Under the pieces are notes generated by a model that worked only from the letters and a program-made list of their open reading frames with translations, searched no databases and was not told the DNA's origin. Source: Dictyostelium discoideum (taxonomy: Eukaryota). From it: DNA of 64,000 bases. A program made the position numbers and the translations under genes. The number at the start of each line of letters is the position of its first letter. The stretch's first letter is position 1. Shown here in pieces: positions 6,480-23,710 of the stretch. Location: NCBI GenBank assembly GCA_000004695.1, contig CM000153.2, positions 3,936,001 through 4,000,000 on the forward strand, given 5' to 3'.

Positions 6480-8335
6480 TTTAAAAAAACATAAAATCCG
6501 AACTTCGTAAAAAGAAATTCAACCAGATGTGATTAGATATTCATGCATACTATTATTTAATAAAGAAGATGATATCTCAATCATTAAAACAAACATTGAT
6601 GCTATAAAAGGTAGTAAGCATCCAATAAGAGCCTTCATCTCTGAATATAACAATAAAGAAATAAGAGATGTTAGAAAAAAAAAAAACACAAGTAATAAAA
6701 ACCAACAACTACAAATACAACTAAATCAATACCATCAACTCCACCAACAACTAATGCATCAACAACCACACCAATAACAACCACACCAATAACAACCACA
6801 CAAACAACAACCACACCAACAACAACCACACATCAATTACCAACAAGCAATACAACAATCTACAACCTAAACAAAACTACTACTACTACTACTACTACTA
6901 CAAAACCTATCAATAAAATTACTACAAGCAATGGTACCAAGTTTCCAATTGCCAGTAGTATTAGAAAATAATGGAACAATTAAAATTATTACTATGGAAC
7001 TGCAGAGGTAATCAATCAACCAACGCTAAGAATAAAACAGAAGAAACGATAAAAAGAATTGGCACTCAATTAGCACTCCTAACTGAAACTAATTTCAATG
7101 GATTCAACCACCACAAAACAATGTTCAACTTTGAAAGAATAGATCATGGTTCAGGTAAAGGAACTGGCATAGCAATAAAAAATAGAGATACAAGAAAAGG
7201 CCACATATCAATAAACTTCAAAGACGATGATGGTAGAATACTATCAATTAAATACAATTCCTTTAATTCTATCAACATATTATTGATCTATGCTCCAGCG
7301 ACTATATCTGAAAGAAACACCTTCATAATCAACTCAAAATCACTGTTTAAAAAATATAATTCAATCAACCATCAAATAATAGCAGGCGACTTCAATAACA
7401 ACCACGATTGCAACAGCTTCTTCGGTACTGAATTACGTAAAATAATAGACCAAGACATGCTACTAGATACTGGTATTGAAGAAAACACTCCAACATTTCC
7501 AAGATCAATGAAGAGACTAGATAGAATCTACTGTCATCCAACACTACTAAACCAAAATTCAAAACTGGTAGTCCACAACACAGTATTTAACAAATCAGAT
7601 CACTTTCCCATCACAATCACAATACAAACCAACAGTGAAACAACAACAACAACAACAACCAAACTAGAAAGACTCCCTTGGACATTATGTAAAGAAATTC
7701 TCAACAACAAACATATACATGATGGGTTATCAGAATTAATCAGTAAGAACAAAGATAAGATCAAATCAGTGGAGGAATGGACGAAATTTAAAAATAATGT
7801 CATCAGAGATTATTTAAAAAAAGAACAAAACAAAATAAAGAAAGAAAAGAACAAAAGAAAATACGTAATCCACAAATTACTTGGAAATAGTGATATCATT
7901 CCAAAGATGAGAAAAGAACTCAATGAAGAAATAAGTAGAATATTAGAAGAAGAAAGAAAGGTAAAAGCATGGGATATCAAATTAAAACTCCACCTGCATC
8001 AAGAAACACCAAGCAAATACCTCACAAGTATCCTTAAATCCAGAGCCAAAGATAAATCAATATTCCAAATAAAAGATAAAGATAATAAGACCATATCAGA
8101 TAAAGAGAACATAGCAAAAAGATTTGTTGAATTCTATCAAGATCAATATGAAGAGAAAGAAGATAACGAAGAAACCCACAAGAAGTTATTAGAAAAATGG
8201 GAAGTAGACGTTGATTTAATCAAGAAACTCGAGATAGACAGACCGATAAGAATACATGAAGTGACCAAAGCAATCAAAACTTCAAGTATCCACAAATCTC
8301 CAGGTTTAGACGGTATCAATGCACTATTCTACAAG
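6480..8335 (+). mobile_element. TRE3-like tRNA-targeted non-LTR retrotransposon, 5' portion. Short ORF1 (6529-6777) with a Thr-rich tail, then ORF2 (6971 onward) with an APE-type endonuclease and the start of the RT domain. The element runs into the assembly gap.
   Basis: It starts within about 50 bp downstream of the tRNA-Asp 3' end, in the same orientation. ORF2 begins MEQLKLLLWNCRGNQS...LALLTETN...HFPITITI (AP-endonuclease fold), and the RT onset is ...SPGLDGINALFYK. This is the classic TRE3 placement downstream of tRNA genes. Confidence 0.7.
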
Positions 8336-8435
8336 NNNNNNNNNNNNNNNNNNNNNNNNNNNNNNNNNNNNNNNNNNNNNNNNNNNNNNNNNNNNNNNNN
8401 NNNNNNNNNNNNNNNNNNNNNNNNNNNNNNNNNNN
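8336..8435. other. Assembly gap of 100 N between two converging retroelement copies
   Basis: Run of n characters. Confidence 0.99.
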
Positions 8436-9620
8436 GAGGTCATGTTAGGAGTCTTCTCTCTGTTTTCCGAGGATGAATGGATGTTAGTGCTCGTTTTGTT
8501 GGCATTGTCTTTTTGGATGGCGTTGGATGTTGTGGTAGTGGTTGTGGTGGGTTTGACAGATTGAGATTCTGCTTGGTTTTTGGGGGGAAGAGGTTGAGAG
8601 GATTTTTTTGATTGGGCTCTTTTCTCTTGGGTTGATTGTTTATCAGACTTATTGTTTGCTGGGTTGTTTGTTTGTTGTTGTGGTTTTGGTTGAGAGGATT
8701 TGATTGCTATCCTGTTTTGGATGTTGGGAGGATCATCTGTCATCTCATCTTCTAATGGTTCTTCCGTGTTGTTTGACTCTACTTTCTTATTTTTCTTTTG
8801 TGAGGAGTAGGTTTTGGTGGCCGTTCTGATGGTAAAGTTGGCGATTTCTGTATTGTGTTGGCCAGATTTCATTTGATCGCCTATTTTGCATTCTATTAGA
8901 CCGAATACTAGGAGGTGGTCGGTGGAGTATATAGTATGGTATATTGCATAGGGTATTTCTTCTGCAAAGGCAGTTTTGATGAGGGCATCCACTATTCCTG
9001 CCTTTTCTCTTGGAATTCTTACTCTTCCTGTGAGGACGTGGTAGTCTCTACTGGAGGTGATGAAGGTTCCCAATTTGCTTCTATCTCTAATGATATTTAG
9101 GAGAGATTGTTCGTTTTTAATCATCAGGTGGATCGTTTTTCTAGTTCCTTTGCCTATGTATATCTTGTCGATTGGGATATCGTAGTTTGAGAGTGTTTTT
9201 CTCATTTCTTCTAACCCCATGAGATCCATTTTGGGGAATTCGAGTGTAATTGGGTAGAATCCGTTGTTTTTCTCGTAGGTTGAGAGAGCAGTCATGTTCA
9301 ATATGGTCTCGCAGTATTTGGAGATGTCTTTGAGGCCTATTGATAATTTGGGGTAGGTCTCCTTTATCTCTGCTGTTTTTGTGGAGAATTCCTTAATGAA
9401 GTTCTCTGATGCCTCGTCCATATGGGTGGAGGGGTTGGCCATTTTAGCCGCGTCTGCGTAGGAATTCATCTCGATGGGATTCCTTTGAATCGGCGATTTG
9501 GTAAATTAGATCTGTAGATCGTGGTGGATTGGTGATTTTTTTTGAAAGATTGGTTAAAATTGACCGAGATTAAGGATAGAAAAGGATGAATTACTTTTCA
9601 CGTGTATCTTGTATCCTCTT
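8436..9620 (-). mobile_element. Second TRE-type element on the minus strand: ORF1 (9469 down to the gap, more than 340 aa) plus 5' UTR. Its 5' end is about 100 bp downstream of tRNA-Ser.
   Basis: The long ORF MNSYADAAKMANPSTHMDEASENFIKEF...TTTTTTTSNAIQK has Gln/Thr/basic-rich low-complexity typical of TRE ORF1 proteins. It is placed and oriented as for TRE3 (downstream of the tRNA, same strand). Confidence 0.6.
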
Positions 9621-13907: not shown

Positions 13908-14235
13908 CCAGGTTATTCAAAAAATTAAAAAAGATGGAAGGAAATTAAAGGGAAATTCACAAACAACACCACAAATATTAAGCAACACAAATGCCTACAA
14001 AAAATAAGCGAAATTGTGGATAAAACTCAATTAAAAAAAAAACAATTCAAATACGTCATAAACATCAATCACGAACCAGACGATAAAATAAAAAAAGATT
14101 TAGAAAAAAGTTTGGACAAAAAAGATGTTTTAATCAAAAAGACCCTGTAAAAAAAAAAAAAAAAATAAAATGAGATCTAGCATCTCAAGGAGAAGCAAAT
14201 AATAATTGCGTTATCCAATTCAAAAAAAAAAAATA
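13906..14235 (+). mobile_element. TRE5-A remnant: B-module end, first about 190 bp of ORF1 (a copy of 12225-12410), C-module and oligo(A)
   Basis: 13955-14148 is near-identical to 12225-12410. The C-module motif aaaatgagatctagcatctcaaggagaagcaa...caattcaaaaaaaaaaa follows. Confidence 0.55.
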
Positions 14236-15040
14236 ATTCCTATGGAATACTCTTTTTAATTTGTATTTACTTGTGTGACCCTTGAACACACAGAAATAAT
14301 TAATAATAAATAATAAATAATAAATAATATTATATCTCTTATATAATATAATAAAACTTCCGTTTGTGCACAATTTGGAATAAAACAACAATGAATTAAT
14401 TTTTATTTTATTTTACTATTTATTCTAAAATTAATTTTACTAAAGAAACCATTGGTAAAATTTCTGAGAATAAAGTAAGAATCTTTTATTTGTTAACGTC
14501 TTTTCAGTTACAGGTTTATTTCTATATTTGTATTTTACCAGGGATAAAAACTTTATATATTAATTTATGTCGCTTAATTATTCGCGATTATTACATTTTT
14601 TCATTTTTAGCCAAAATTTAGATTGATATTTTTAAGATTTTTAAAAAAATATATACATTTTATGTGTTTTAAAATGTATGATATAAAAAACTTAAGAATA
14701 TTAAATCAAATATGGTAATAATTAATAAAAAGTTTAATTTAATAAAAAATCATTAAGGAACTTACATTAAACCCTTCCGATTCTTTAACGAATAGAAGGT
14801 GATAAGGTAGAATTAGATATGGTAATTTTTGAGCAAAAGTATCGAATATTCCCTTTTGATGTAATGGTCCTGTCTGTAGATTACCCAAAGATGGTTATTA
14901 CAATTTTTTATTTTTTTGAATATTTTTATTTATCAGACTTTTATATTTAATAAAATGAGGTCTCAAGAAGAAGCAACTATCAATTGCATTATTTCATCAA
15001 AAAAAACTATCAAACTTTTATTCGCTCCCCTCAAAAAAAA
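14236..15040 (+). mobile_element. TRE5-like internally deleted element. Its 5' segment of about 370 bp is an inverted duplicate of 5985-6365, and it ends in a C-module-like end at about 14947-15010.
   Basis: It starts aattcctatggaatactcttttt..., sharing the cctatgRaa start with the TRE5-A A-module at 11831. The sequence is colinear, inverted, with the element upstream of tRNA-Asp. Confidence 0.5.
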
Positions 15041-15261
15041 CAAAAATATCCTACCTTTGTATGAAGTTTTATTAAAAATTAACATTTAATAAATATTATA
15101 TAAGATCTAAATGATACAAACAATATAGATATATTTTATAGGTATAATACGTCCTAAATTGAATCACAAGCAATTTATATACATCAAAACCTTTTAGAAT
15201 ATTTTTTTGAGTGAATACTAATTAATTAGATTATGGTTTATTTGATATAATTTCAAATATA

Positions 15262-15305
<44 letters not shown>

Positions 15306-15358
15306 ATAGATTAGGTTTTGTTTAGTTTAGTTTAGTTTGACCTGAGGTGTTTTTTCTA

Positions 15359-15938
15359 TTAGAAAGTTGGATAATAAGAGTTATAAGCAAATATTGCAAG
15401 GTTATCATTTGATGCTGTAATACGCATATAACCAGATTCGCCCCACCATGAACCCCAACTGTTTTTAATCTTATAGGCATCAGTTGCTTGGTCATAACCA
15501 ACAAGTAAGACAAGATGATTAATACCAGTGTATTTAGTTGCTGAGTTATATATACCACTCTTGTAATTTTGGAATGCAGAATCTACATATACTGCAATTG
15601 TAACTGGACCTTTTTTAAGTTCTGCAAGTAAAGCAGCTTTAGTTTTTTCGGTATAACCATAGTTTGTGTACTTGAACCTTGCAACTGAACTTGTAGTAAT
15701 ACATGAAGTACCAGTAACAGCTTTGTATGGATCATCTTTTTCATAAGCAATACCTGGTGTTTTAAAGAAATTGAAATAGTTTCCTGACCAACCACCATTA
15801 CAACCACTAGCAATACAATTTACAGCATTTTGATTTGATAATTGAAGTGTCGATTTTTGTGCTGTACCATATTTAATAAGGTAACGAGATTCAAGTGCTG
15901 CACTACTAGCAAATGCCCAACATGATCCGCACTAATTG

Positions 15939-16002
<64 letters not shown>

Positions 16003-16471
16003 CTATTGAATTGGAAAATTAAAAAACAAAAAATTAAAATTAAAAAACATACTTGTCCTTGATCTCTTATTGGAGTTTGGTATGAAGTCCAATCTACTGT
16101 AAGAGTTGATGTTGGGGCTGGTGTTGTTGGGGCTGGTGTTGTTGGTTTTGGAGTAGTTGGAGCTGGTGTGGTTGGTTTTGGAGTGGTTGGAGCTGGTGTT
16201 GTTGGTTTTGGGGTGGTTGGAGCTGGTGTTGTTGGTTTTGGAGTAGTTGGAGCTGGTGTGGTTGGTTTTGGTGTGGTTGGAGCTGGTGTAGTTGGAGCTG
16301 GGGTTGTTGTTTTTGGAGTATAAGGAAGAACACCCTTAAATCCACCTGCTGGGTAATATGAACATGAAACTTCAGATTTATCTGGACATATTGTCTTTGC
16401 GCAACCATATGAAGTACTCTTACTCCAAACAGCCTATAAAAATTTAAATATAATTAAAAAACAATTTAATT

Positions 16472-16516
<45 letters not shown>

Positions 16517-16914
16517 CTTACATATGTCCATAATTGACAATTATAATTTGCAGAACTATTACAACCTTTAGCGTTCCAGTCATAAAAAGAGGCACCTTTT
16601 TGGATATTATCAAGAGTTGCATTTAAATTGAAATAAGTATTTGGAGTCCACCAACTTTGCCATTCACTATTAGTTCCATACTGTGACATCGTACTAAATT
16701 TACCATCACATTTATCTAAACTACTTTGAAGAGCAGCTGCAATTGTTGCATTCCATTTTAATGCTGGAATTGTTGTTGATGGAGTTGGACCAATTGGAGA
16801 TGATCTCCATTTATTGTGATACGAAACAATAATTTGTTGTTCGGTTGGTGACAATCCACCTTTTACAACAAAAAGTGTTGAAATTAAACATAACAATACT
16901 AATATTAATTTCAT
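15359..16914 (-). CDS. Secreted CAP/PR-1 (SCP) domain fused through a Pro/Thr-rich linker to a papain-family (C1A) cysteine protease mature domain, with no I29 propeptide. Three exons: 16914-16522, 16433-16053, 15931-15359 (about 448 aa).
   Basis: Exon 1 has a signal peptide, then HNKWRS...YGTN...CQLWTY (CAP motifs). Exon 2 (after a GTAAGT...ATAG intron) reads AVWSKSTSYGCAKTICPDKSEVSCSYYPAGG (CRISP signature) followed by (TTPAPTTPKP)n and ...TVDWTSYQTPIRDQGQ. Exon 3 (after a GTATGT...TTAG intron) reads CGSCWAFASSAALESRY...INHLVLLVGYD...NSWGSWWGESGYMRI, which is the Cys/His/Asn catalytic triad context. All junction phases check and there are no internal stops. Confidence 0.8.
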
Positions 16915-17659
16915 TCTTTTGGGTGATTTTAAAACTATATATATCTAAATATATATAATTAATTTTTTAATTAATTTTAAAAAAGATAAAAAAAAAAAAA
17001 AAAATTAAAGAATTGATTTTAAAAAAAAAAAAAATGTTTAAATAAAAAAAAAAAATATAATAAAAATAAATAAAAATTAACTTTTTTTTTTTTTTGATTA
17101 AAAAATAATCACAAAAGAGATCTTTTTATTTGGAAAAAAAAAAAAAAAAAGTTTGAAATCAGTTTATTTTTAAAAATTAAAAAGAAAAAAAATATCTTTT
17201 GGATTTAAAAAAAAAAAAAAAGAATTATTGGTTTATTTTAAAATAATGAATGGGTTTTAATACTTTGAATGAAAAAAATGGTTTTTTTAAATAAAATATC
17301 ATATGATATTTCAAGTGATCCCATGAAATCTTGATTACCAGCCCGTTTTTTTTAATTAATTAACGATTTGAATTTTCGTTCAAGTTGCAAATTTAACCAA
17401 TTTCAAAAAAAAAAAAAAAAAATATTAAAAAAATTAAATTAAAACTGATCATCCCAAAATATCTCTGAATTGTTTTTTTTTTTTTTAATTTTTTTTTTTT
17501 TTTAAAATTAAAAAAAAAAAAAAAAAAAATAAATTATTGTAAAACCAAATCACAACTATTTTTAAAATTTTTTATTAAAAAAAAAAAAACAAAATAAATT
17601 GTGTCTTTGTTAAATAATTTATTATTTTTAAAAACAATTAAAGAAATAAAAAAAAAAAA

Positions 17660-18522
17660 ATGAAAATTATTGTTTTAGTTTTATTAATTTTGGGATGTTC
17701 TCAATTAATTAATTCTCAAGAAGTCCCAAGTGATTCAATTCTTTTTCAACAATTTATAAATTGGATGGATAATTATGGAATTTTTTATACTTCTGGTGAT
17801 ATGCAATCAAAATTCAAATCTTGGAAAGTATGTTTATTTTTAATAGTTATAATTATTTATTTCTTTATTATTTTTTTTTATAAAAAAAAATAAAAAATAA
17901 AAAATAAAAAAAAAGTAACATATTTTTAATATTATATTATGTAATAATTTTTTCAGTCAAATGTATTAGAAATTGCAAGTTTAAATTCAAACCTTAATGT
18001 TCCAGATGTACTCTATACTGTAACTGAAACACCAGTATCCAATTTAAGAACACTTTTAGATGCTGAACCAACAATTGTTGAATCATATCCAGGTCAAGAT
18101 ATTCAACAATGTAATTATCTTTTTTTTTTTTCCCCTCTTTTATTTTCAATAATATTAATTTTTTTTTTTTTTAAAAAAAATTATTAGTTGAAGTTAATCA
18201 ATTTTCAGATTTAACAGCATCAGAGTTTAGTAATATTTATGCCGGTGCAGATGCATCATTAGCTATTTCTGAAGTAGCAGCATCAACTTTATCAACTGGT
18301 GCCATTGTTGGTATTGCAGTTGGTGGTAGTGTTGCACTTATTGGAGCTACTGCTGCAACTGTTTTAATTGTTAAAAAGAAGAGACAAAACAAAAAACCAC
18401 AAGTTTCTGAACCAATTGCAACAACTCAAGATGTTAAAATGAAACCAACCAATGGTATAGATCTTTTAAATCGTACTGAAAATCAACATAGATCAATCAC
18501 TGCAAGAGCATTCTATTCTTAA
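17660..18522 (+). CDS. Type-I membrane protein carrying a stand-alone cathepsin-propeptide inhibitor (I29) domain, about 218 aa. Three exons: 17660-17827, 17957-18110, 18188-18522.
   Basis: Signal peptide; ERFNIN-like block [34 protein letters not shown]; GNFD-like block [17 protein letters not shown]; one TM helix ([24 protein letters not shown]) followed by a KKKRQNKK stop-transfer; short cytoplasmic tail. Introns are GTATGT...TTTCAG and GTAATT...TTATTAG, with phases consistent. Confidence 0.8.
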
Positions 18523-18571
18523 ACAATTCAATTATTAATTTATTAGCTAATTAATTAATTCATTTTTTGAT

Positions 18572-18622
<51 letters not shown>

Positions 18623-18951
18623 TTAAATTTTTATTTTTTATTAATATAATAAAAATAAAAAAACAATAAACCCAAATTTCAATTTGATTTTTTTCACAAC
18701 AAAAAAAATAAGTTTAATATTATTTTCACTTTTCCTACATAATCATTTTAAAAAAAATAGATTTTTAAAAAATATATATACTTTCAATATTAAATAAATG
18801 AAAATAAAAACAATAATATTAATAATAAATTAAAAGTAATTAATATAAATTTAAAGAAACAAATAAAAAAAAAAAAAAAAAAAAAAACAATAATTATGAT
18901 TTCCAAATTAAATTTAATTTTATTTTAATTGGATGAGAAATTTAAATTTTC

Positions 18952-19322
18952 TTAAATTTCAGACATTGCTTCAATATCAACACTCTGCAAAATTTTAAAA
19001 AAAAAATAAAAATAAAAAAAAGAAATTATATTAGTATAATTTTATAGTTTAAAGTTTTTTTTTTTTATAAAAATATATTAATTAAACCTACTTGAACTAA
19101 ATCCATATTGTTGATTTTCATTTCTAAGTCATCAACTGATGTTTTGTTTTCAACAACAGCCAATGCTCTAAGACGAGCTAATTTACCAACTAATGGTTCC
19201 TTTCTGAATTCACCCCAAGTTAAACCGTCCATTTTAATGTTTTTGACATTCTTTTCAACATCTTGAATGTTGGTTTCTTCAGAGGCTGGAGAAATCAAAA
19301 AGATAACTGATGTTTTATGCAT
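18952..19322 (-). CDS. Short eEF1B-type guanine-nucleotide-exchange domain protein, about 87 aa. Two exons: 19322-19092 and 18984-18952. No N-terminal domain was found.
   Basis: KTSVIFLISPASEETNIQDVEKNVKNIKMDGLTWGEF...LVGKLARLRALAVVENKTSVDDLE...MDLVQ|SVDIEAMSEI aligns with the EF-1beta C-terminal GEF domain ([34 protein letters not shown]...YVQSMDVAAFNKI). The intron is GTAGGT...TTTTGCAG. Confidence 0.6.
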
Positions 19323-19886
19323 TTTGAATATTTATTTTATTTTGAATTATACAAAATATAACAATTAAAAAACTTTAATTTATACTAATTTCCAAAAATC
19401 TTTTTTTTTTTTTTTTTATTTTTTCCCAAAAAAAAAAAAATATTAATTATTTTTATTAATAATAAAATTTAATAAATCTTTTAAAGGGTTGTGGTTTAAC
19501 TTCCATTTTTGGAATTTTTTTTGCTTTTATTGAAAATAAGAAATTTCAAATTAATATATATTTTTTTTTTTTTTTCATTTTTTTATTTTTTTATTTTTTT
19601 TTTTTTTATTTTTTATTTTTCCAGTGTTTAAGAATTTTTACTAAATTTGTAAAAACAAAAAAAAAAAAAAAAGTGTTAATGTATGAGTGGGTAGTACTTT
19701 TTATTCGATTTTAAAATTCCAAAAAAAGTAAATGACAATTATTTAGATAGGAGAATTTTTTTTTTTTTTATAGGGGTTTTATTAAATAAATTATAATTTT
19801 TTTTTTTTTTTTTTTTATGGGAATAATAATTATTTGGTTTTTTAATTTTTAATTTTTTATTTTTAAATTTTTATTATTTTTTTATT

Positions 19887-19939
<53 letters not shown>

Positions 19940-19940
19940 A

Positions 19941-22182
19941 TTAACGAATATATTGCATTAAAGATTCAATTCTTCTAAATGCATCATCAGGAGTTATTCC
20001 TAAATCAGCAACAGCTTTTAATTGACTTTCATATTTGAGATCCAAGAAAGTTTCAATTAAGTCACCATCAATGAAATTTTTAGAGTCAATAGTATGATGA
20101 TCATTTGAGAAAGCTCTCCAAGTTTCATGACTGAAACCACCAACACCACGAACTACTTGATTTAAACCCTTTTGTAATTTTGAGAAAAAGATGAAATCCT
20201 CTTCAGAGATAGAGGCAACTACACCAATTGAACCATTGACAGAAGCATAAAGGATTGTAGGAATAATTGGTTGATCTGAATCTGGTAAACGTACTAATGA
20301 ACCATGTCTCATTGAATTGATTGATTCACCAATATGATAATGACCAACACTATCCAATAGCTCTCTCTCTAGCTCATTAGTTGAATCATTATTCTTTTTG
20401 ACAACGATGAAATTATTACTTGCTTCAGCACCAATGAAATAGTCATCATTTATCATTGCAACTGATCTAATCCAAATTGGTTGTGGATTTCTAGCGATTT
20501 GTTCCAACGAACCATCAGATTGTTCAACCAATAATGACATTGACTTCATCATATCGCCAACGAGTATGAAATGACCTCTACTTGCTAATTTCAAAATCAT
20601 AGTATGACCTTTATGTACACTCTCACTTGAAATAACTTTACAATTCTTTTCCTTTGAATGAGTATATCTAATTGAAAATAATCTTTTATGTACTGCTGCA
20701 ATTAATCTACCATTAAATGATAATAAGAAATAAACACTTGATCTAAATTTAATTTCTTCTAATAAAGTTAATTTACCATTAGCACCACTATTATTATTAT
20801 TGTTGTTATTATTGTCTAAACTATCTTTATCATTCGATGATGATGATGATGATAAACTAAATAATAAAACTCTACCACTTGATTTAATTGGTGTATTAAT
20901 TGAAGTACCAACTGCTAAATAAGTATTTACATCATCACCAGCAAATTTACATGGTGTAATTGACCAACCCATTTCATATGGATCCAATTTATAAGAGGAG
21001 ATGAGTTCAAATGTTTGATCATTATAAATACGAATGTATGAAACCTCTTCATCCTCTTCACATAAATCTTGTGCACCACCTAATAAACCTTCATTATTCT
21101 TTACCGTTATCACTGCATAACATGAATGATCTTCTAAATGTACAATTCTTCTACCCATCTCTTCATTCAATGGTATGGTTTTAATATGAAGTTTTTGAAT
21201 TTCATCAATTGTACCAATTGTCAATGAATTGGTTGTAGCAATTGCCATTGAATTTGGGAATCCATCTGAATTAAATGATGTAACATTTGTAACATCCTTT
21301 AAATTTACAACTGAATAAAATAATTTCTTATTATGACTATAAATTACTGTTGGTCTATCTGAAATTGCAAATATATTAATTGTATTTTTTAATTTAAATC
21401 TTTTAAAAAAAAAAATAAATAATTAAAAAAATTAGAAATTAGAAATTTGAAACTTGAAATTTTTTTTTTTTTTTTTTTTAAAAATACAAACTTTTTTAAA
21501 ATTATTGGTTGAGTACCTAAAGTTAATTTTCTTTTATCAAATAATTTAAAACTTGAAAAATCAAATTGAAATTTAAATAAATGACCATCACCTAATGAAC
21601 AGAAAATATAATCTATTGAATCAAAAGAAATCATTAATATTGATCTTGGTAAAATTTCACCACCCAATGGTTCTTTCCAAATCTCTTCAAGTGTTGGTAA
21701 TTTGAAGATACGTAAAGTGATATCATTCCAAAGTCCAACAGAGACCAATTGAGATTTAGTATCCATAAATGAATCAAAAGGTGAAATATCAATACAAGAG
21801 ATTTCATGAGGTAGTTCAATCTCCTTTACCAATTGAATTGATTTGTTGGATGAATTAATTTGGAAATATAATAATGATTTATCAATTGATAAAACGATTT
21901 GATCTTGATTGGTTGATACTAAATTAATTCTACGAGATGGTTCAACATTCCATTGTGATACTCTTTTGAATGTATTTGAATCGATTAAATTGATTGAGAC
22001 ATTGGTAATTTGAATCAATAAATTCAATTTATCAATGGTACCACAATAAAGTGTTGAACAATTTGATTCTAAACCTTCAAATTCTGTTTCTTCAATCTCT
22101 TCACCTTGAAATGATAATACCTTTGTACATTCAATAAATGATGTAATTAAATATCTATCTTTTGAATCAGTTATACCATTAC

Positions 22183-22249
<67 letters not shown>

Positions 22250-23710
22250 TGGGAAAATACCTTTTATACCTTCCAATTCTATTGATGCTTGTTCAGCAAT
22301 ACCAATACCATTTCTAATGATACGTAATGAACCATCCCTATAGGTACCAGAACAAGTTACAATTTGAGCTTGACCTTGTTTTTCAGCATCAACAACACAG
22401 AAATCAACGACTGGACCAATGTTTGTAAATGCTTCTAAATAGGTGACGTATGAATCTGTAGTTTGATCTTTTTCAGTATTTAATCTTATCAATTGAGAAT
22501 CACCTGAACTTGAACCAATATAAACTACACCAGAATCTAAATAACTAATTGATGATGGTATTGAGATACGACCCAATTGTTCAAATTTCAATTCCATTAC
22601 TTTTTGTTGTTGATGAATTAATACCAATACTGATAATCTACCAAAATGATCACCAAAGAGGAATCGAGAACCATCTTTATCCACTCTAGTGAATGCTAAA
22701 AACTTTGTATATGATACTGCTACGGATCTAGTGACCTTACCATTTAAATAGGTGATACCATTATCTGCTACCACCAATACACCACCCAATGGTACAGGTA
22801 CTAACAATGAACTATAAACTCCAACATTTGATTGTGACCATGGTCCAACTACTAATTCTGTATCCTTTGATGATATCTCATAGGTTGATATATGTTTTTC
22901 ATCTTTTGTATCCTTAAAAAGTACCGCTATCGTTGGTACTTTACAACCATATAAAAATGTCATATCTAAAACTTGTAATTCCTCTAATCTAACATTATTT
23001 ACATTCTTTTGAATTGGTGAATTATTATTATTATTATTAATATTAAAATTATTATTATTAATATTATTATTATTATTATTATTATTGTTATTATTATTAT
23101 TGTTATTATTATTATTATTATTATTTATTTTATTTGGTGTATTATTATTATCCAAGGTAATTAATTTTAATAAACCTTCATAAAGATGTAATGCAACTAT
23201 TCTACCATCAGGATCTATAATGCCAAGTTGACCAGCTTCGGTTGGTCTACCAATTGTATCTTCAGCATTACCAGATGCTTTAGTTATAATCTCTTTCTTT
23301 TCATAGTCATATGCTAATATACAAAATTTAAAACTCTCTGTTGATATAAATAAATAATCCTGTTTACTACCAGCAACTGAAAATAATTTTAATACTGATA
23401 TTCTACCATAAATATTAACATCAAACATTGGTTTTAATCCATCTTGATCCATTAAAAATATTTCAATCTTTGTACATTTACTAAGTATTTATTGTTTATT
23501 ATTTATTATTATTATTTATTATCAAAAAGGGAAAAAAAGAAAGTTAATTTCAATATTATATTTTATTATTTTATTTTTTTAATTTTTTAATTTTTTATTA
23601 TTATATAATTACCTAATTATAAGATTTTTATCATTGGGACCTGTGAAATTACCAGTTACAGAATGTGTAACTGATGTTGGTTTTTGAACAGTTGATACAA
23701 AATTATACAT
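19941..23710 (-). CDS. repE: DNA damage-binding protein 1 (DDB1), 1181 aa. Three exons: 23710-23613, 23480-21492, 21399-19941.
   Basis: N-terminus [32 protein letters not shown]|[34 protein letters not shown]... aligns residue for residue with human DDB1 ([44 protein letters not shown]...). Across the second intron it reads ...[10 protein letters not shown]|[36 protein letters not shown] versus human [46 protein letters not shown]. The C-terminus reads ...[18 protein letters not shown]. Two poly-Asn insertions interrupt the propellers. Confidence 0.9.

Follow-up and report, generated by a model that had tools for sequence, protein, structure and literature searches.

Papain-family (C1A) peptidases are textbook zymogens, in which the N-terminal propeptide serves both as a folding template and as an inhibitor. 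Bound to the mature domain, the I29 pro-region threads the active-site cleft in the reverse direction, which inhibits the enzyme, and in many family members it also helps folding. In the canonical zymogens (procathepsins L, K, and H, propapain, and procaricain), the I29 and papain-fold modules lie on one polypeptide with I29 at the N-terminus, and propeptide action in trans has been studied mainly in vitro or in soluble inhibitor paralogs. Here we describe a stretch of 64,000 nucleotides of Dictyostelium discoideum DNA (contig CM000153.2, positions 3,936,001 to 4,000,000; the whole stretch is called the window below) in which the same two modules are found on two divergently transcribed genes. 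One of them, gmsA (DDB_G0286015), encodes a protease with a CAP domain and no propeptide, and the other, DDB_G0286021, encodes an I29 domain that is C-terminally anchored in the membrane by a transmembrane (TM) helix and is called the I29-TM protein below. We put at roughly 55% the probability that the two form a two-gene split zymogen, in which the membrane-anchored I29 protein would act in trans on the propeptide-less CAP-protease as an inhibitor and tether, and possibly as a folding template.

Separately encoded propeptide homologs, which DDB_G0286021 resembles in this respect, are known from CTLA-2 alpha and beta, Bombyx BCPI, and Drosophila crammer. These free-standing I29 inhibitors are small and soluble and their targets retain a propeptide of their own; we know of none that is the genomic partner of a propeptide-less protease. 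DDB_G0286021 differs from them in its TM helix, its conserved cytoplasmic tail, and its obligate genomic partner. The role proposed for it follows the working logic of Lif, the lipase-specific foldase of Pseudomonas and Burkholderia, a membrane-anchored steric chaperone that stands beside a secreted enzyme and replaces an intramolecular pro-sequence. The two belong to unrelated families, and Lif is bacterial, periplasmic, encoded in an operon rather than in a divergent pair, and acts as a chaperone, not by blocking an active site. CTLA-2, BCPI, and crammer inhibit cathepsin L-like enzymes in trans (references in PMC3286859). Papain-family and CAP domains also occur together in secreted proteins of Aphanomyces euteiches, the modular C1A:CAP proteases (PMC10084794). 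Their CAP domain is C-terminal, the reverse of the order in GmsA, and no paired I29 gene is described for them in that paper, which reports CAP:C1A proteins from amoebozoan slime molds only and C1A:CAP proteins from Aphanomyces (PMC10084794).

A first-pass annotation of this DNA, made by reading the letters, had taken the CAP-papain fusion to be possibly undescribed. This was overstated, since gmsA, its name, its Pfam architecture, and the automatic I29 annotation of DDB_G0286021 are already public and the CAP:C1A combination is noted in PMC10084794. In the accessible literature, which does not include the original description of gmsA, neither the loss of the propeptide, nor the universal divergent neighbor encoding a membrane-anchored propeptide, nor the module as such is recognized anywhere, and a literature search for the identifiers DDB_G0286021 and DDB_G0286015 gave no matches. 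In that literature gmsA figures as an expression marker or a knock-out candidate (PMC4910948). The conserved pairing is the new part of the finding; the control by a propeptide is of a known type, here split into two genes and provided with a membrane anchor.

The window is AT-rich, with 23% G+C. The product of its minus-strand gene at 15359-16914 has 448 amino acids (aa) and shows 100% full-length identity to DDB_G0286015 in protein comparison; UniProt names this product 'gamete and mating-type specific protein A'. The gene is spliced from three exons through phase 0 GT..AG introns, with the following parts.

16522..16914, minus strand: gmsA exon 1, signal peptide (residues 1-19) followed by the first three quarters of the CAP domain (Pfam)
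16053..16433, minus strand: gmsA exon 2, CAP C-terminus, PT-rich linker, and start of the mature C1A domain (TVDW...DQGQ) in a single open frame
15359..15931, minus strand: gmsA exon 3, C1A catalytic domain from CGSCWAF through the stop codon (Pfam Peptidase_C1, E 4e-50)
15920-15922, minus strand: codon of the catalytic Cys262, in exon 3
15515-15517, minus strand: codon of the catalytic His397, in exon 3
15461-15463, minus strand: codon of the catalytic Asn415, in exon 3

The Pfam match to CAP (PF00188) spans residues 31-157 and profile positions 2-117 of 117 and scores 35.8 bits (cut-off 21.1), and that to Peptidase_C1 (PF00112) spans residues 243-444 and scores 171.3 bits (cut-off 20.7). The motifs HNKWR, YGTN, CQLWTYAVW, SCSYYPAGG, and VDW...DQGQCGSCWAF were all confirmed, and the two domains are joined by a (PAPTTPKPTT)n linker of 70 residues (171-240, window 16107-16316). 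The signal peptide, CAP domain, linker, C1A motifs, and three exons that the first-pass annotation had drawn for this gene are therefore all in agreement with the known protein. Gln256, Cys262, His397, and Asn415 stand at the positions of papain Gln19, Cys25, His159, and Asn175, and the catalytic Gln, Cys, His, and Asn are kept in all of the CAP-C1 proteins that were aligned (16/16). The protease domain of GmsA looks active, its activity being a prediction from these residues, and enzymes with an intact catalytic set would need control. Because exon 2 is one open frame from the CAP C-terminus to VDW...DQGQ, the CAP domain and the protease belong to one transcript, as had been claimed. Both CAP-C1 homologs of T. 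lacteum are intronless single open reading frames (ORFs) with the same architecture as GmsA. One of them is complete on a 1.39-kb contig (L008) assembled from a public sequencing run, and this contig looks like a transcript.

The 448-aa GmsA protein has no Inhibitor_I29 (PF08246) match in Pfam. In the precomputed annotation PF08246 is absent from all CAP-C1 relatives, and ordinary cathepsins recovered by the same search carry it. The C1 domain of GmsA begins directly at TVDW...DQGQCGSCWAF after the linker, and the position of the propeptide is held by the CAP domain and the PT linker. The earlier suggestion that the CAP domain replaces the propeptide is thus correct as to position, while a role as its functional stand-in is putative. 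A hidden I29 exon upstream of gmsA or inside it was ruled out by the intronless T. lacteum orthologs and by tblastn, in which the pro-regions of 22 ordinary procathepsins were compared with window positions 14000-20000. The minus strand had no I29-like coding potential between 15359 and 17660, and the tblastn signal fell only in the plus-strand gene. With no PF08246 match and no I29 exon that could be spliced on, the claim that this protease lacks a propeptide holds.

The plus-strand gene at 17660-18522 has three exons and encodes 218 aa with 100% identity to DDB_G0286021 in protein comparison. Its features are listed below.

17660..17827, plus strand: I29-TM exon 1, signal peptide, helix 1 of the I29 domain, and beginning of the ERFNIN helix (Pfam I29)
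17957..18110, plus strand: I29-TM exon 2, end of the ERFNIN helix and a 40-aa dictyostelid-specific insertion (residues 67-106)
18188..18522, plus strand: I29-TM exon 3, GNFD strand, helix 3, 16-aa Ala-rich juxtamembrane segment, TM helix, cytoplasmic tail, and stop codon
18289..18369, plus strand: glycine-rich TM helix, residues 142-168, followed by KKKR (hydropathy and conservation)
18445..18507, plus strand: cytoplasmic tail motif G-I-D-x-(F/L)...H-x-S-I-T-A-R, with S210, I211, T212, and R214 present in at least 90% of 42 members

Inhibitor_I29 (PF08246) matches residues 32-121 of this protein with 43.3 bits against a cut-off of 24.4, over profile positions 1-59 of 59 and split by the insertion. 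The ERFNIN-type spacing is represented by D47-K51-W55-N58-I62-N66, with conservative variants, and the GNFD-type motif ExNxFxD by E109-N111-F113-D115. At least 90% of 42 family members have N58 and N111, and these two residues, like I62 and N66, are invariant across the nine paired orthologs. A profile built from nine I29-TM members matched procaricain, pro-papain, the TgCPL propeptide (Toxoplasma cathepsin L), and pro-cathepsin H, each time in two collinear pieces on either side of the insertion. The AlphaFold2 (AF2) model had a predicted local distance difference test score (pLDDT) of 35 with a 9-sequence alignment; with 42 sequences the mean was 73, with values above 90 at residues 21-70 and 111-120. 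The top Foldseek matches of the model in the PDB were nearly all pro-regions (procathepsins H, L, and K, the TgCPL propeptide, and propapain), together with crammer (2l95). An example of the best matches is 3f75_P, with a target TM-score of 0.83 and a root-mean-square deviation of 2.9 A, and the E-values are weak (0.07-1) because the I29 domain is small, about 75 aa. Profile and model indicate that the ectodomain of DDB_G0286021 is a genuine propeptide homolog with the pro-region fold, made up of two helices that cross, a short strand, and helix 3. The ERFNIN-like and GNFD-like blocks, the single TM helix, and the three exons had been proposed at first pass, and Pfam, the motif spacing, and the identity to DDB_G0286021 bear them out.

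AF2 also predicts a helix at residues 141-174 of DDB_G0286021. The cytoplasmic tail that follows KKKR is 50 aa long, and the TM helix and tail are conserved in about 40 family representatives. Both proteins of the pair have signal peptides and the TM helix of the I29-TM protein is followed by KKKR, so the I29 domain, which makes up the whole ectodomain of this type-I membrane protein, faces the lumen or the outside, on the same side as the protease. The nine spliced partners are all built alike, from a signal peptide, an I29 domain that contains the insertion, 12-17 juxtamembrane residues, a TM helix, and basic residues after it. Their TM consensus is LS(T/A)GAI(V/I)GIAVGG, and in 8/9 the tail ends in G(I/V)(D/N)(I/V)F....(P)H(H/R/Q)SITAR, the partner of the D. 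firmibasis paralog being the one without this motif. The juxtamembrane segment is short and constrained in length, so that the cleft of a bound enzyme would lie against the bilayer.

At all of the dictyostelid loci examined in DNA (13/13), the CAP-C1 and I29-TM genes are immediate divergent neighbors. These loci, the D. discoideum window among them, comprise every dictyostelid homolog locus that was retrieved and cover all four major dictyostelid groups. In the window the start codons are separated by 745 bp, close to the 750 bp or so given at first pass, and the equivalent spacers of the other species measure 55-891 bp. The spacer and the pairs outside the window are as follows.

16915..17659, unstranded: shared intergenic region, 745 bp between the divergent start codons
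D. dimigraforme, L011: pair
D. purpureum, L001: pair
P. violaceum, L002: pair
T. lacteum, L004 and L007: two pairs
C. fasciculata, L003 and L006: two pairs
H. album, L005 and L012: three pairs, two of them in tandem
D. firmibasis, L009: group-4 paralog pair
A. subglobosum, L013: pair

A. subglobosum had been picked as a likely counter-example, its known CAP-C1 and I29 proteins being on separate contigs; the pair is nonetheless present, since tblastn identified the unannotated divergent neighbor as a CAP-C1 gene. Synstelium polycarpum would add a 14th case, by the numbering alone of its consecutive gene models 18028 and 18029. The flanking genes change from species to species, except among the closest relatives. 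The pair has also been duplicated as a unit, and the group-4 paralog pair takes the same branch place in the trees of both families. The neighbor-joining trees are congruent and the two distance matrices correlate with a Mantel r of 0.886 that none of 5000 permutations reached (0/5000), a value that is inflated and partly reflects the shared species tree.

Several gene models at or near these loci have features of their own. The two tandem CAP-C1/I29-TM pairs of H. album occupy L012 48-8725, and one of the protease models there, at 777 aa, either has a long extension at its C-terminus or is a merged model. Directly downstream of the second CAP-C1 gene of C. fasciculata (L006 11521-12954) is a Peptidase_C1-only gene of 385 aa, annotated without I29 and without CAP. 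In Planoprotostelium, PROFUN_08730 (L010 10001-12719) is annotated with 702 aa, of which the first 540 or so look unrelated, and the I29 part is directly preceded by a signal-peptide-like start; separate genes have probably been merged in this model. A CAP-only homology search for non-dictyostelid CAP:C1A proteins, including the Planoprotostelium one of PMC10084794, returned nothing.

The membrane anchor has a wider distribution than the pair. A profile search of 1.84 billion representatives returned about 40 full-length representatives of the I29-TM family; where the source is named, nearly all are dictyostelid and one is from Planoprotostelium fungivorum. The same search found the TM helix and tail as a cassette on unrelated ectodomains of amoebozoan type-I membrane proteins. 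Proteins with this cassette include P0174, P0176, P0177, P0182, P0188, P0196, P0204, P0180, P0199, and P0211, with tails of the form ...SIT(A/G)R. Among the carriers are complete procathepsins of Mastigamoeba balamuthi with the order I29-C1-stalk-TM-tail (P0180, P0211) and a CAP-domain protein of Planopodium, CAP-...-TM-tail (P0199), so that the cassette and the set of ectodomains are those of the dictyostelid pair. Mastigamoeba, however, anchors the whole I29 and C1 zymogen in cis, whereas Dictyostelia anchor I29 alone and have the protease as a separate CAP fusion. The presence of the TM helix and tail on other ectodomains indicates that I29, C1, CAP, and the anchor have been shuffled as modules within Amoebozoa. 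The family profile also gave a weak match, possibly compositional, to the TM region of human APP/C99 (GAIIGLMVGG...KKK) with E of about 0.003-0.06 (window 18289-18381). From its sequence, this likeness raises the possibility of intramembrane cleavage or of glycine-zipper oligomerization.

For a protease without I29 whose sole conserved neighbor encodes an I29 domain on the same lumenal side, action in trans is the most economical explanation. Both proteins would enter the lumen of the endoplasmic reticulum (ER), where the I29 ectodomain would dock on the cognate catalytic domain as a propeptide does in cis. The Ala-rich juxtamembrane segment, 12-17 residues long in the nine paired orthologs, would then run backwards along the active-site cleft. 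Docked in this way, the enzyme would stay latent and bound to the membrane, and its folding may be templated as well. The glycine-rich TM helix and the ...SITAR tail could route the complex to the cell surface or to an acidic compartment, and low pH or cleavage at the destination would free the active CAP-protease. In Dictyostelium, glycine-rich TM domains are a surface-sorting signal that takes proteins from the ER to the surface via TM9/Phg1A (PMC4510845). A glycine-rich TM helix of the type escorted by TM9/Phg1A suggests surface delivery for the I29-TM protein, and a routing role of the SITAR tail is suggested in the same way. In D. discoideum the system would be deployed in gametes of one mating type, gmsA being reportedly gamete-enriched and mating-type specific (PMC4910948). 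The first-pass annotation had already proposed a split, trans-acting module; the pairing at 13/13 loci, the changing flanks, the duplication as a unit, and the same-side topology now speak strongly for it, and binding, inhibition, and chaperoning are what we infer from them. If the split zymogen is real, zymogen control can be divided over two genes, which would allow spatial control of latency at the membrane. The pairing with a propeptide-less protease has been kept since the dictyostelid ancestor, in an organism that is genetically tractable, and the finding exposes a widespread amoebozoan cassette of TM helix and tail.

Several points weigh against a split zymogen. Within the I29 domain of DDB_G0286021, the 40-aa insertion lies between the ERFNIN and GNFD motifs; AF2 models it with low pLDDT, and P0162, the Planoprotostelium relative, lacks it. 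At the single Planoprotostelium locus examined, the 10 kb to each side of the I29-TM-tail gene contain no CAP-C1 gene, which indicates that an I29-TM protein can exist without a partner. gmsA is reportedly dispensable for mating (PMC4910948), and the inflation of the Mantel correlation has been noted above. Some C1A enzymes, for example falcipain-2, fold without their prodomain, so a chaperone requirement cannot be assumed and the chaperone part is the weakest link of the proposal. A stronger version, in which the I29-TM protein is an obligate foldase and tether in trans that displays the latent CAP-protease on the gamete surface, with release by contact or acidification, intramembrane cleavage of the emptied or clipped stub, and the SITAR tail as a signal, is a long shot. 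If true, papain-family zymogens would have their first natural split example in this surface presentation and signaling device, which would tie protease activation to signaling in amoebozoan sex.

The I29-TM protein might instead be an inhibitor that only guards, a membrane-bound counterpart of CTLA-2 or BCPI, shielding the producer's membrane from its own secreted CAP-protease or confining the activity, with no travel together and no role in folding. We consider this unlikely. Free-standing I29 proteins are known inhibitors (literature cited in PMC3286859), conserved adjacency and co-duplication suit an enzyme and immunity pair equally well, and the glycine-rich TM helix hints at a location on the surface; but such a guard leaves the latency of a propeptide-less C1A domain in the secretory pathway unexplained, and the short juxtamembrane segment, which holds a bound enzyme flat on the membrane, fits a co-travelling complex at least equally. 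Somewhat less likely again is co-regulation without interaction, in which a bidirectional promoter serves two genes that one cell state requires, the I29-TM protein targets other cathepsins or has a role other than inhibition, and the CAP domain, or nothing, replaces the propeptide in cis. The cassette of TM helix and tail is a general amoebozoan scaffold with varied ectodomains, CAP and whole procathepsins included, the I29-TM gene of Planoprotostelium is unpaired, and there are C1A enzymes that fold without a prodomain, all of which suit this explanation. Promoter sharing alone nevertheless hardly explains 13/13 pairings across roughly the whole depth of Dictyostelia together with independent duplications of the unit, especially as the products correspond exactly to both halves of a known zymogen. 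The least probable of the explanations, and in our view a very improbable one, is that the pair is the relic of an ancestral procathepsin gene that was broken, for example by an inversion, with adjacency kept by the short spacer alone. A head-to-head arrangement is what results when a gene's 5' part is inverted, and the I29-C1-stalk-TM-tail proteins of Mastigamoeba could resemble the ancestor. A relic is, however, difficult to reconcile with open frames, motifs, and catalytic residues that are intact in both genes in every species, with a pair that outlasts the loss of flanking synteny, and with its repeated duplication as a unit.

The 745-bp spacer is presumed to be a bidirectional promoter. 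Elements that may bear on the regulation of the two genes, within the spacer and past the stop codons, are listed here.

17190..17400, unstranded: conserved spacer block of about 190 bp, candidate cis-regulatory element, about 95% identical between D. discoideum and D. dimigraforme
15264..15307, minus strand: (AUUU)11 tract in mRNA sense, 51 nt past the gmsA stop codon
18570..18621, plus strand: (AUUU)13 tract in mRNA sense, 48 nt past the I29-TM stop codon
D. dimigraforme L011, 3189-3224 and 6625-6672: (AUUU)n tracts
D. purpureum L001, 6455-6478 and 9926-9949: (AUUU)n tracts
P. violaceum L002, 1421-1440 and 4580-4599: (AUUU)n tracts

Outside the block of about 190 bp, the spacers of D. discoideum and D. 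dimigraforme align poorly. The block is undetectable in D. purpureum, and the D. discoideum spacer has no 10-mers of meaningful complexity in common with those of distant species. A reading of the block as a non-coding RNA was rejected: Rfam gave nothing up to E = 1, no tRNA was predicted, and the z-scores for folding, -1.1 and +0.5, were not unusual. The (AUUU)n tracts are found on both genes, 30-100 nt past the stop codon, in D. discoideum, D. dimigraforme, D. purpureum, and P. violaceum; they are absent from the more distant pairs and thus confined to the clade of gmsA orthologs. In the D. dimigraforme, D. purpureum, and P. violaceum loci they are the only (ATTT/AAAT) repeats of at least 5 units, and in D. 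discoideum they are the two longest of five such repeats in the 64-kb window. By their sequence they resemble AU-rich elements of overlapping AUUUA, which suggests joint post-transcriptional control of both mRNAs.

Elsewhere in the window, two runs of 100 N, at 630-729 and 8336-8435, are assembly gaps or masking, and the second breaks an ORF at 8324-9469. Beyond the I29 gene lie a small minus-strand ORF (19065-19322) that by eye is like an EF-1 guanine-nucleotide-exchange domain, and a large minus-strand gene (19941-23452) for a beta-propeller protein that by eye is RSE1/CPSF_A (DDB1)-like. The EF1_GNE and RSE1/CPSF_A genes occur in the same order at the D. purpureum locus L001, so that this flank of the pair appears to be syntenic within group 4.

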